DNA from: a virus
Lineage: Duplodnaviria; Heunggongvirae; Uroviricota; Caudoviricetes
Strand: one strand, 5' to 3'
DNA length: 64,000 bases
Virus record (IMG/VR): IMGVR_UViG_2877962823_000010
Shown here: positions 57,001 through 64,000 of the stretch, one piece after another
Layout of the letters: each line of letters starts with the position of its first letter
Numbering within the stretch: position 1 is the first letter of the stretch
Made by a program: the position numbers

Positions 57001-60000
57001 TACCCGCCCGACTTTCACCTGAACCCGCCCGGATGCCACAGCTACCGCCTGCATCAGATTATTTTTATCAAAGGCCACCACCCGTCCATTACTGAGTTCA
57101 ATCACCGGAAGACGCTCGAATGTACGGTAATAAACCACCTGAAGCAGCACACGACGGCGTTCACGCTGAAGCCATTCGTTCTGCTGTCGATCCCATGACT
57201 GATACTCTTCCCATGCACTCATCAACGGACTGGGCTGGCCTTCAGTAACCGTGGTATCGACAAAACCACGCCAGTCATCAATGGCATAATCGATAACCTG
57301 AGCCATTCCCGGGAATGTAGCTTTTGCCTCATCGGTATCCATCCAGCGGCGACGCATCAGCCATCGGCAGTCACTTAAATCAGCCTCCCGGCTCAGCCAG
57401 TCCCAGAAAACCTCATTCCGGCTGACAGTAGACACCTTAAATTCAGGCCCGAACGGATCGCTGTTTCGTCTGACCTCCACCCAACTGAGGCCCGCCTTGA
57501 TTTGTTCCGCATAGGCATCAGAGCGGGCTTTATTCATATTGCCAAGGCGGCATGCATCGGCAAATTCAGCATTAATAGCTTCAGCCAGTTTTTCAGTTTC
57601 ATCATCTGGCTCGTCTGACATCACCACCAGATCAGTCCGTGTTTTGGCCTCCATTCCCAGAACGCCATCGACGGTAGGCGCGATGAGGTTATGGATAGTC
57701 ATCGGCTGACCGCGATCTTTCAGTACCTGAAGAACTTCCGGTGGCAACTGATCGCCATCGTAATACGCACAGGCCTTGTTTGCGGCATCACGCCATTTAG
57801 GCTGGCTGTCAATATCAGAACAAAGCGCCTGTAACTGGCGCTGAGAAAAACGCGGCGTGGCTCCATTGTCGTTTTTCGTCGCCATGGTGTTAGTTTCATT
57901 TTTCATCAGTGAGCCATCCAGTGTGTGGTTCTGCGTTTATCCGTTTTCTGTTTTACCCTCACCGGCATTCTGGCGCGCATCTCCTGGGCAATCATGTAGC
58001 TCATGAGCTGATCATCAAAGCAGCCTTCCTGTGCATTCATGGAGCCTTTCGCGTCATAAACGTAGGTGTTCATTTCCGATAATGTGCCTGACCAGCGGAT
58101 CCCTGATATTCCATTATTCAGAAGCGTTTTCATTCCTTCGGTCAGAACAGGTTTGCTCTGACGGGTTGTCAGCCAGCCAAGGCGGGGCGTATCGTCGTCA
58201 TATGCCTGGTCAAGATGCTGTTCGTTGTAGATATAACGTGTCGGATAGAGTTCCCGGAGTTTCAGGATAACTGCATGTCCGTGATTATTACGCTCCGGCC
58301 CCACAAACGCGTTGTTATACATACGACAGACCTGCGAAATGAGATGAGCAAAAAGTTCAGCATCGAGATGCCCGAACCAGTGAGCCACCTGCTCGCCATT
58401 ACTGCGTTTGACAACATCCAGCGATGAGCGGTCTCCGTGCTCCAGCCCTTCGGCAGTATCTGCCCCACAAACATACTCTTCATCCGGATCCGGCAGTTCC
58501 CATACCAGCAGATAATTCATCAGCGTCCGCTGCAACTCGTTTTTATTTCCTTCACGCAGAGACTGAGCTTTAGTCTTCGCTCCTGTAACAGGTTCAATGT
58601 CATAAACAATCATCGGTGGCGAACAGAATGATTCTGCCTGCAACGTACTTTCGGCACTGAACACACGTCGTCCGGACGTCAGAAACGCCTCCTGTGGCGT
58701 TGAGGGAAACTCCTGCTTCATTTCCTCACGCTGTTCAGTTTCCTTATTGATGTACCACTGCTTCTGTTCATCAGTAAGCGTGATGTTCATTGCCTTCTCA
58801 ACCGCAGAAAAATACGTCATTTTTTCCCGTGACAGCTTCAGCCCGCTTTCCGGCACTCTGGCGCTGTATTTAGGATCCTGCCACCAGGCGTAAAAATGGA
58901 ATTTATAATCCTGTGCCGTCAGCAATAAGCCTGATGCAGTGATCTCCTGTGCTCGGTTACTCATCTCGTAAAAATCACCACCCACGCCTTCAGCAGTGGA
59001 CTCATCAAAAATAATGCATTCATCAGAGACGGCATTAAGCGTACCGGTTCGCAGTTCTTTCGCCTTAGCCGGATATTTCGCGCAAATTTTGCCGTGCTCT
59101 GAGATATGCAGGCGCTGCACCGTACCTGAACGGAATGAGGTTGCCACCTGGATACTCGAGCCGTGACCAAACAGGATATAGCCACCGCTGGCACCGCTAC
59201 GACGTTCAACGATGGTGAATGAGGCTCTCAGCCAGTCAGGGAGATGATCAAACGGTACAGCAATTTTTGTGCGGAAAATTTCACTGGCAGCCTGTTTATC
59301 CTGAGCGACGATCCCGCATTTGAGATGCGGAATGAATAATGCCTGGTCGAGAAGATAAATATCAATGGCTGTGGAAAATCCCAGCTGGCGCGCTTTCAGG
59401 ATAATATTTTTATTGTGCATGCTCCGGAACAACTGGCGCTGCGCCGGTCGCATTCTGAAGGTGACCAGTTCACCTTTTTCGTTCTGTATTTTGTAGAGAT
59501 GATTGAGCCGCCACCAGGGATTGCTCAGTTTAGTCATGATGAACAGACGTTGTTCAGCCTCGGTCATTTCTGACGGCTCATCACATCGCGGTTCATTCTT
59601 CCGGAATGTCATCCAGTCTCCCCGAATTACTCATTTCATGCAGCGATGACACGATGTCACTGACAGGCGTAACAACGCCCCGACGCTGGTTGGTCAGAAT
59701 ATCGGTTTCAGCTCTGAGTTTATCTCTGGCGGCGTTGATTCTTTCCCGGTCAGCACGAAGTTTTGGTGCTGTCTCAGCCAGGACGTCCAGCGTCAGCAAT
59801 GAGCGTTCAATTGACTCGATACGGGCAATATTCCGGTCAAGGGCCTGTTCAGCTTTGAGTATTTTGTCGTAAAGAGCAACACGGTTTCCACGTCAGTTGC
59901 CTCTTCCAGGTCGGCGAACATCCCTTTAAGTGCCTTAGTTACTGAAAGTGCGCGGGCCCGGGTGAACACCAGTTCATCGAACAGCACCATGTCGGACGCA

Positions 60001-63000: not shown

Positions 63001-64000
63001 TGCTGTGGTGTGGTTACCTTCCTTTTCATCCAGAAACTGGTCGAGGATTTCAGGCGCAGAAGCACCTGCGGCAATCAGCGCCAGAACGGCAGCCGATAAA
63101 CCATAGCGGAGTTTCCTGCTCATCAGCTTACTCTCCCCGTGCCGCCTTACGCCGGTCTTCTTTAATCTTGAAATACAGGTTCGTCAGATATGTCAGCAGC
63201 CCAAACAGCAGACTCCCCAGCACGCCTATTGCCGCCCACTGAGACGGGGAAACCCTGTCCAGCAACTGCAGGAACCAGTAGCCCGTTCCCACCGCTGACG
63301 TGGTGTATGACACACCTGTTGTGATTTTTTCCATCTGGTACATACCCCGTCTCCCGCAATCCGGAAGCTCACAACATGAAAAAGGCCAGCAGCTGTTTAC
63401 TGATGGCCCTGACTCCCCGTTACAGCATCATGACCGATTCGGGTTGAGGTTCAGTCGCATCGGCGACCGGTGATTCAGGCTGAACTTCACCGCTCTCTGC
63501 GGTGGTATCTCCCGCTTCAGTCGGTGGCTCTGCCTGTACACCAAGCAGTTCATCCAGAATGGCATCCACTTCTGCATCAAGACGCGCTTCCAGGTTATGG
63601 CGAAGTTTCTGTTTCAGTGCGCTCCGGACTTCTTCAGAGCGCAGGACGTCCTTCACTGCCTCTGCAGTGACCAGGGATGTAATTTCTGACATGGGATTTT
63701 CTCGTCGAAAGGTGTGATTAAGAAAGTTGCCGCTAAATGAGCGGCTCTTCGGGTTTGCTTCCGGCTGACTGACTGGCGCTGATTTTCTCAGCGGCCCTTT
63801 TGTCAATCTGTCTGCGCCAGAAGTCACGCATGGCCCTGTACCCACCCGAAAGGAGATACAGCACACAGACCACCGTACAGAAGTACAGCATTAACTGGTT
63901 CAGAAATGTCATAATTTCTTTCCGTTATTGTTGACAATAAGAACTGTTTTCATTAAAAACCAGAGTACGAAAGTATCGTTCCTTTATTTTTTCTCCATAG

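Follow-up and report, generated by a model that had tools for sequence, protein, structure and literature searches.

A 64-kb crop of a probable head-to-tail prophage dimer, a toxin-deleted Stx2a-type element at wrbA in the Escherichia coli strain 111 lineage

Background

The classical tandem double lysogen, in which two copies of a phage lie at one attB, is the lambda dilysogen. Among Shiga toxin-producing E. coli (STEC), two stx2c prophages have been described in tandem at sbcB (PMC10758439), and duplicated identical Stx2a prophages have also been reported (PMC8112680). Loss or disruption of stx in association with IS629 is likewise on record for O157:H7 (PMC7175801, citing Eppinger et al. 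2011). The finding described here is ordinary. The window (i.e., the whole stretch of viral DNA that was analysed, 64 kb long) is probably a crop of a head-to-tail dimer, at wrbA, of a defective Stx2a-type prophage from the lineage of the bovine E. coli strain 111, in which the one base that sets the two ends of the window apart, GG in place of GGG, is an under-call. Its biological importance is small.

Results and discussion

The end repeat is cut to size by the window

A base-for-base comparison found a single difference between the two end segments of the window (Table 1), GGG in the first and GG in the second, and once this one-base indel was allowed for, there were 0 mismatches in the remaining 4,116 bases of the repeat. 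Identity over 6.5 kb is beyond chance. The first-pass annotation was thus right that the segments are identical but for one G, and also that the window exceeds one genome unit, as a 64-kb window covers 1.11 units of about 57.4 kb. Its estimate of that unit, about 57,429 bp, holds as the repeat period to the left of the indel; to the right the period is 57,428, and the actual unit length is about 57,430 bp.

The description of these segments as a terminal direct repeat did not stand. The repeat spans the window from base 1 to base 64000, i.e., both of its ends are fixed by the window, with the element playing no part, and for this reason it is no terminal repeat of an element. Because a unit of about 57.43 kb is shorter than the window, the opening 6.57 kb of the window, from portal to lysis genes in copy A, recur at its end in copy B, and the window offers a cropped view of a duplication of 2 x 57.4 kb. 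For genome scans this is a caution: a "terminal repeat" at the window ends shows that the window exceeds one repeat unit, and nothing more.

Table 1 Positions of features in the window
Feature	Position	Strand	Remarks
Repeat copy 1	1..6572		Prophage copy A: 3' part of portal gene, terL, terS, bor, lysis genes, part of the region before IS629; NZ_CP028685.1 3438808..3445379
Repeat copy 2	57430..64000		Copy B counterpart of the repeat copy 1 genes, ended by the window end; NZ_CP028685.1 3496238..3502809
terL, copy A	477..2183	-	phrog_2 and related; copy B at 57906..59612
terS, copy A	2164..2970	-	Intact, 268 aa; phrog_370; WP_001086069.1
G-run in terS, copy A	2454..2456		GGG, as in all relatives
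IS629 copy 1	6892..8201	+	1,310 bp; left flank, truncated DUF6645 gene; right end abuts truncated ant (ORF6N) and marks the 6,585-bp deletion
O and P	11138..13463	-	NZ_CP028685.1 annotation; domain match for P
cI-type repressor (LexA/S24 family)	14364..15059	+	NZ_CP028685.1 annotation and domain search
Excisionase, copy A	24284..24568		DUF1233 excisionase domain
Tyrosine integrase, copy A	24621..25931	+	Arm-DNA-bind_2 and Phage_integrase domains
attP core, GACATGTTGAAACCATG	25947..25963		Internal junction from copy A (1..25946) to copy B (25964..64000)
IS629 copy 2	45927..47236	+	1,310 bp, 1 mismatch to copy 1; simple insertion with CGG target duplication, interrupts tail gene
C-run, copy B	48941..48947		C7 in the window, C8 in RefSeq copy B and all relatives; second under-call of the window
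Portal gene, copy B	55762..57906	-	P22_portal, E 1.4e-128; the repeat starts inside it; copy A portal gene cut by the window start, 1..477
terS, copy B	59593..60398	-	Split in the window: 201-aa ORF (59793..60398) and 68-aa remnant (59593..59799)
G-run in terS, copy B	59883..59884		GG, in the window only; GGG in RefSeq; probable 1-base under-call

Two collinear copies stand in one chromosome record

The window aligns to positions 3438808..3502809 of the RefSeq chromosome NZ_CP028685.1 (E. coli strain 111, from cattle) with two differences, each a base missing from a homopolymer, and the IS629/nin junction of the window occurs in one of 5,426 complete E. coli genomes, namely the same record. 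In this record, two complete prophage copies lie collinear and head to tail in wrbA, in the order rutG/ymdF – attL – copy A – attP – copy B – attR – wrbA; they measure 57,428 bp (copy A) and 57,430 bp (copy B) between att cores and differ at two C-runs only. The window contains no bacterial DNA. Beyond it, the chromosome goes on leftward through the tail genes of copy A to attL, and rightward through the early genes of copy B, int and attR to wrbA.

The outer att cores fall outside the window, at 3407326 (by rutG/ymdF) and 3522184 (by wrbA) in NZ_CP028685.1. Both are hybrids, as the attL-side core (GACATATTGAAACCATG) and the attR-side core (GACATGTTGAAACGATG) each combine one host-type and one phage-type polymorphic base, and the two polymorphic positions in the attL, attP and attR cores fit Int-mediated exchange. 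The internal attP is intact; with its flanks in the window it is collinear with the phage genome record HUN/2013 and 100% identical to the junction on extrachromosomal phage records. Among the origins that the first-pass annotation had offered, tandem integration therefore finds support in the two copies that run from attL to attR in wrbA, and NZ_CP028685.1 shows neither a circular wrap nor a free concatemer. Two different lambdoid prophages with a common 6.5-kb module were also considered and rejected, as the whole 57.4-kb units are identical and joined by attP.

Stx-type prophages at wrbA are rarely duplicated head to tail, but the arrangement recurs. Of the 381 complete genomes with this integrase region, 2 have the attP junction in the chromosome. 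The other one is PNUSAE145590, an O157:H7 genome obtained independently by another laboratory, in which a tandem of the same phage lineage lies at wrbA. There the phage is full length, the two copies are 100% identical across 64,004 bp, and the tandem duplication doubles stx2a. A literature search on the accession numbers of strain 111 and sibling strains gave no matches.

The duplicated unit is a toxin-deleted Stx2a-type prophage

Judged by its sequence, the unit belongs with the short-tailed Stx2a phages of the 933W/Sp5/Stx2-II type, and its toxin genes have been deleted. Its backbone is 99.99–100% identical to HUN/2013, Stx2 II, the strain 110 prophage and the PNUSAE145590 prophage, and this near-identity to named Stx phages places it with the Stx-phage backbones (Sepvirinae/Traversvirus). 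The gene order of a functional Stx-converting phage, in which Q and the late promoter precede stxA and stxB, is absent: each copy lacks 6,585 bp, made up of stx2AB, the three tRNAs for Arg, Arg and Ile, Q, ninG, ninH and roi, together with part of ant. The corresponding segment of strain 110 (Q, tRNAs, stx2AB) had no match anywhere in the window, in which 0 tRNAs were found.

Two insertion sequences mark the unit. Their ends, TGAACCGCCCCGG... and ...CCGGGGCGGTTCA, are inverted repeats, and they encode a 108-aa HTH_Tnp_1 protein and a 296-aa rve protein (orfA/orfB), as in IS629 (IS3 family); RefSeq labels the element an IS3-like IS1203 family transposase with programmed frameshift. At IS629 copy 1, the CTTT target duplication of sibling strain 110 is absent from the right side in the window, and the 192-aa Ant–IS629 fusion product of the window has no protein on record. 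The tail gene hit by IS629 copy 2 is represented in NZ_CP028685.1 by flanking pseudogene halves, and its intact homologue is WP_001146326.1 in PNUSAE145590. Unequal crossing-over between the direct IS629 copies was rejected as a source of the duplication, as it would duplicate the 39-kb inter-IS segment only and leave no attP junction.

The IS629-adjacent deletion, together with the second IS629 in the tail gene, predicts a defective prophage that could make neither toxin nor particles, and in a late operon without Q and its promoter region the late genes would be silent. The unit retains cI, N, O, P, int and xis, so that early, excision and replication functions appear to be kept. Strain 111 thus has, at wrbA, a stx2a-negative derivative of the Stx2a prophage, which arose through an IS629-adjacent deletion that also removed Q.

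One base splits terS in copy B of the window

The terS product of copy A matches phrog_370 over its full length (residues 1–268 to profile positions 1–284 of 284, E 4.8e-125); Pfam gave no match for terS or terL, and both were identified with PHROGs. The open reading frames of the two copies bear out the initial observation that the first terS is intact and the second split: the 201-aa ORF of copy B has 172 native residues and 29 out of frame, and 96 residues are lost. In RefSeq, copy B of terS is intact (3498401..3499207), and both RefSeq copies are WP_001086069.1. The proposal of a tandem with one defective terS consequently finds no support, as GGG stands in both RefSeq copies and GG in no other public sequence searched. 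The run is three Gs long in HUN/2013 and strain 110, in both copies of RefSeq and of PNUSAE145590, and in 20 IMG/VR contigs. Exact searches for GG gave 0 matches in 377 E. coli records and 0 in 189 phage records, the GG 38-mer had 0 exact matches in IMG/VR, metagenome contigs and GTDB genomes, and the 201-aa frameshifted TerS corresponds to no protein on record. Phase variation or a programmed frameshift at this G-run was rejected, as the tract has only three Gs and is invariant in 566 related records and the 20 IMG/VR contigs. With stx2 and Q already lost, terS function is irrelevant.

Weighing the alternatives

All of the differences are one-base homopolymer under-calls and none is a substitution, so the GGG/GG frameshift is most likely a consensus error, namely a one-base under-call in copy B; of the two explanations offered at the outset, sequencing or assembly error is the one favoured by RefSeq and the relatives. 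Compared with relatives, each of the four deviant calls in the window or in NZ_CP028685.1 lacks one base of a homopolymer, the copies show 0 substitutions against each other over 57 kb, and G/C runs of 7 or more occur in the unit at two C sites only. As the nearest copy-distinguishing junction to any deviant site is at least 19.8 kb away, reads of ordinary length could not be assigned to a copy, and polishing would be weakest at these sites. A run of three Gs is not a classic error hot-spot, which speaks against an under-call, and the unit holds 1,949 runs of exactly three bases. The window is also not byte-identical to NZ_CP028685.1, a further point against an under-call; if it comes from another assembly or a sibling isolate, the missing G may be a real mutation. 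In that case the tandem would be real and its copies truly different, with the 1-bp terS deletion in copy B as a first step of neutral decay. We find this distinctly unlikely. GG is present in the window sequence as given, the source record of the window is not RefSeq version.1 and could represent a sibling isolate, and a terS lesion would be selectively neutral in a late operon without Q and its promoter region; set against these points, both copies read GGG in the closest public version of the locus, GG occurs in none of more than 560 related records, and copy B of the window has another under-call, in the C8 run. The tandem copies of PNUSAE145590 are identical, and the copies studied here have no substitutions between them, whereas real divergence is normally dominated by substitutions, as seen in E. 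coli mutation-accumulation studies. Where a long-read assembly contains a large perfect duplication, a homopolymer length that differs by one base from copy to copy should by default be regarded as noise.

The second copy itself may be questioned. Strain 111 could hold one integrated prophage, with the second copy and the attP produced by an assembler that threaded reads from excised, replicating circular or concatemeric phage DNA into the chromosome, and the homopolymer difference would again be noise. A chromosome deposited as closed, in which the copies number exactly two and attL and attR are properly formed, argues against this, as do the like structure of the window, which is a second version of the locus, the wrbA tandem of the independent O157:H7 genome PNUSAE145590, and the tandem identical stx2c prophages in the literature (PMC10758439); moreover, strain 111 has no separate phage replicon with the attP junction. 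In favour of such an artefact, the attP junction of the family stands on extrachromosomal records of 50, 63 and 212 kb in three other assemblies, and since excised circles were assembled there as separate replicons, circle junction reads could have misled the assembler. With cI, int, xis, O and P kept and Q absent, the phage could excise and replicate without lysis, and copy counting is impossible with reads shorter than 57 kb; one laboratory reported that RSII reads failed to resolve duplicates of about 60 kb (PMC10758439). On balance we hold a misassembled single prophage to be rather unlikely. It is barely credible that the window represents a phage genome, circular or terminally redundant, continued beyond its own end, even though it has no bacterial DNA and a perfect attP: the repeat ends are the window ends, NZ_CP028685.1 contains the second copy in full and extends on both sides to host genes, and a deliberate wrap would leave no indel. 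The host flanks in NZ_CP028685.1 are the reason for rejecting a wrap or a direct terminal repeat, and with Q absent and a tail gene disrupted, packaged DNA would not be expected.

How the dimer may have formed

Under the favoured explanation, a true tandem with an under-called G, an IS629-adjacent deletion would have removed stx2AB, the tRNAs, Q with the late promoter region, ninG, ninH and roi, and a second IS629 would have inserted into the tail gene. Both copies share the deletion and the IS insertions, and a perfect attP lies between them, which suggests that the dimer arose within the cell after these lesions. It could have been produced by Int/Xis acting on two sister chromosomes, with attR on one recombining with attL on the other, or else by a circle that was excised and then re-entered a resident copy. 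Superinfection by a second virion is unlikely as the origin, because the unit that was duplicated was already defective.

A variant in which both the tandem and the G deletion are real seems to us very improbable. It would make the locus a Q-less, non-lytic Stx2a remnant duplicated in place, through Int/Xis exchange between sister chromosomes or re-entry of a circle after an abortive, no longer lethal induction, with one copy decaying independently. If true, it would be a defective-prophage amplification caught in the act, without virion production.

Comparison with known systems

The strain 111 locus resembles tandem lambdoid dilysogens in its two collinear, near-identical copies, outer hybrid att sites, internal attP, and tyrosine integrase with excisionase. 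It is unlike the known tandem dilysogens in that the unit was already defective, with no stx, Q or tRNAs and with IS629 in a tail gene. The duplicated Stx2a prophages of PMC8112680 occupy different loci (prophage in prophage), whereas those of strain 111 are in tandem.

At the level of the unit, the closest relatives are the phages 933W, Sp5 (VT2-Sakai) and Stx2-II (Sepvirinae, Traversvirus) and the chimeric HUN/2013 (KJ909655), with which it shares the backbone and the wrbA integration module; the IS629 in the DUF6645 gene has an identical position in Sp5. Unlike these phages, the strain 111 unit lacks 6,585 bp and has an extra IS629 in the tail gene. As in IS629-associated stx losses of O157:H7, the deletion begins exactly at the IS629 end and the target duplication is lost on that side; unlike those losses, the IS629–ant/ORF6N junction was found in only one of 5,426 complete genomes. 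Finally, the window shares with unclipped circular contigs and long-read homopolymer indels a repeat identical save for homopolymer length, with one-base deletions as the deviations. It differs from unclipped circular contigs in that the repeat of strain 111 comes from two complete copies with host flanks and involves no wrapping.

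Genomic context of the 6.57-kb repeat

Alignment placed the window at 3438808..3502809 of NZ_CP028685.1, the chromosome of the cattle E. coli strain 111 (hereafter the RefSeq record). There, two complete prophage copies (A and B) lie head-to-tail between rutG/ymdF and wrbA, in the order rutG/ymdF, attL-side core, copy A, internal attP core, copy B, attR-side core and then wrbA, yccJ and agp. The att core has two polymorphic positions; one outer core is host/phage, the opposite one phage/host and the internal one phage/phage, which is the pattern that integrase-mediated exchange would be predicted to leave. 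As one part of the window belongs to copy A and the remainder to copy B, the 6.57-kb repeat is the portion of a 57.43-kb unit that appears twice within 64 kb, and its limits (window bases 1 and 64000) are set by the window and by no element. Direct comparison upheld the repeat described in the first-pass annotation: 1..6572 and 57430..64000 differ by a single G (GGG at 2454-2456 versus GG at 59883-59884), with no mismatch in the 4,116 bases beyond this 1-base indel. The annotation had also rightly held that the window exceeds one unit length, as two complete copies are present in the RefSeq record, while the circular wrap that it listed as an alternative is contradicted by the host flanks on both sides of the pair. 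Overall, the repeat is genuine yet unremarkable: the window crops a pair of defective prophages in tandem, both deleted for stx, that is already on public record.

Coordinates of the prophage copies, att cores, terS and IS629 elements
Feature	Window	NZ_CP028685.1	Strand	Remarks
Core GACATATTGAAACCATG		3407326		next to rutG/ymdF
Core GACATGTTGAAACCATG	25947..25963	3464754		between copies A and B
Core GACATGTTGAAACGATG		3522184		next to wrbA
Copy A part	1..25946
Copy B part	25964..64000
terS copy 1	2164..2970		-	intact, 268 aa
IS629 copy 1	6892..8201			deletion junction 8201/8202
IS629 copy 2	45927..47236			CGG target duplication; 1 mismatch vs copy 1

Evidence for and against the tandem arrangement

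Whether the tandem is instead an assembly artefact deserves consideration, although we regard this as unlikely. If a prophage lacking Q can still excise and replicate but does not lyse the cell, molecules with the attP junction would be over-represented in a DNA preparation, and reads shorter than 57 kb are unable to count copies. The same arrangement, however, is found in an independent O157:H7 genome, PNUSAE145590 (NZ_CP133120.1 3408632..3536690), where two full Stx2a prophages stand in tandem with the same attL/attR in wrbA, and thus it recurs independently. In that pair, the unit is 64,021 bp long and includes both stx2a and Q, giving the genome two stx2a copies, and the two prophages show 100% identity over 64,004 bp. 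The literature also offers precedents, including tandem identical stx2c prophages at sbcB (PMC10758439) and duplicated identical Stx2a prophages (PMC8112680). A case of ~60-kb duplicates that RSII reads failed to resolve is reported as well (PMC10758439).

The attP junction (window 25555..26355) was fully covered in 5 of the 381 genomes with this integrase region, two of them chromosomal (strain 111 and PNUSAE145590) and three extrachromosomal records of 50, 63, and 212 kb. The latter are RefSeq "plasmid" records (NZ_CP044141.1, 50,155 bp; NZ_CP133131.1, 63,329 bp; and NZ_CP124742.1, 212,414 bp, EDL933) and are presumably Stx-phage DNA, in excised circular or concatemeric form, that ended up as replicons in the assemblies.

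The single-base difference in terS

The ORF that holds the GGG/GG difference is the terminase small subunit gene, terS (phrog_370, E 4.8e-125, full length). As first proposed, the indel spares the first copy and breaks the second, in which 172 native residues remain, 29 out-of-frame residues follow and 96 are lost. In the RefSeq record, the copy B run is GGG and neither terS gene is interrupted (WP_001086069.1 at 3440971..3441777 and 3498401..3499207). The GGG version of a 38-mer across the site was present in 20 IMG/VR contigs, and the GG version had no match in IMG/VR, metagenome contigs or GTDB genomes. Similarly, a 61-base GG query had no identical match in 377 E. coli or 189 phage records, all of which fell in the 95–99% band; among the matches listed, each was at 98.4%, equivalent to one gap.

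By alignment, the window differs from its RefSeq match at two sites only, both in homopolymers of copy B, and is 2 bases shorter. The other site is 48941..48947, where the window has C7 and RefSeq copy B, the chimeric Stx phage HUN/2013 (KJ909655) and both PNUSAE145590 copies have C8, probably a second under-call in the window. Within the RefSeq record, copies A and B differ at two C-runs only (C6 vs C7 and C7 vs C8), with no substitutions over 57 kb. At one of these (3427104, outside the window), the run is C6 in copy A but C7 in copy B, the window and relatives, and the gene is annotated as frameshifted, which indicates that homopolymer noise affects the duplicated part of the public record itself. 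Compared with HUN/2013, the sibling strain 110 and both PNUSAE145590 copies, the deviant state was always the shorter one (G2 vs G3; C7 vs C8, twice; C6 vs C7), and the unit has no G/C run of at least 7 apart from the two C sites. Each deviant site is 19.8-23.5 kb away from the closest copy-distinguishing junction; reads of ordinary length are not assignable to one copy there, so polishing was presumably weakest at these sites.

Taken together, the shorter states confined to homopolymers, the absence of GG in relatives, the identical PNUSAE145590 copies and the distance from the junctions make a consensus under-call, a sequencing artefact, by far the likeliest explanation of GG, with the caveats that a run of three is no classic hot-spot and that the window, not byte-identical to RefSeq version 1, has its source in a different assembly or in a sibling isolate. 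Of the two explanations initially offered for the indel, homopolymer error is therefore favored, while a real copy difference with a defective terS is not supported, given the GGG runs and intact genes of both RefSeq copies. Loss of Q and its promoter region from the late operon, together with the disrupted tail gene, would leave the deletion without phenotypic effect even if it were real.

Origin of the dimer and comparison with related Stx phages

Throughout its length, the window consists of phage DNA, of the type found in short-tailed Stx phages (933W/Sp5/Stx2-II; Sepvirinae). Early functions are retained, including cI (S24 and HTH), a DnaB-type P gene, an integrase (Arm-DNA-bind_2 and Phage_integrase) and an excisionase. 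The window is 99.99-100% identical to HUN/2013 (61,137 bp) with two exceptions, the replacement of 6.3 kb of HUN/2013 by a 1.3-kb element and an additional 1.3-kb element within the tail region. Aside from the stx region and IS elements, the unit backbone is that of "Stx1-converting recombinant phage HUN/2013" (from strain Sakai), with an early region of Stx2-II rather than Sp5/PA4 type (PA4-like phages, 74% coverage). A direct repeat of ~450 bp (21085..21534 and 27664..28112; ~96% identical, as estimated from cross-matches of each stretch to HUN/2013) flanks int/attP in TraR/ead-Ea22-like paralogues, and the ead/Ea22 gene on the right carries a frameshift annotation in both strain 111 and PNUSAE145590.

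Both 1.3-kb elements are IS629 (1,310 bp each, with perfect terminal inverted repeats and orfA plus orfB bearing HTH_Tnp_1 and rve domains), and copy 2 splits a tail gene whose homologue is intact in PNUSAE145590 (WP_001146326.1). Since the stx deletion and both insertions are common to the two prophage copies, the duplication would be later than these lesions. As superinfection is not possible for a phage that lacks Q and has an interrupted tail gene, an intracellular origin of the dimer is most likely. Mechanistically, Int/Xis recombination between attR of one sister chromosome and attL of the other may have produced a dimer and a cured sister, or an excised circle may have re-entered the resident copy. 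An origin by unequal crossing-over of the IS629 copies was excluded, as this would create no attP.

The deletion is best seen against strain 110 (NZ_CP028687.1), in which an intact Stx2a prophage carries IS629 at the same DUF6645 site with a CTTT target duplication around it. Relative to this prophage, the window lacks 6,585 bp starting exactly at the right IS629 end (5' DUF6645, stx2B, stx2A, three tRNAs, Q, ninH, ninG, roi and 3' ant), and the CTTT on the right side of IS629 copy 1 is gone. The missing segment had no match elsewhere in the window, and ARAGORN found no tRNA genes in the window. Among 5,426 complete E. coli genomes, the IS629/nin junction query was fully covered in one, NZ_CP028685.1; confined stx loss via IS629 is itself a described phenomenon (PMC7175801).
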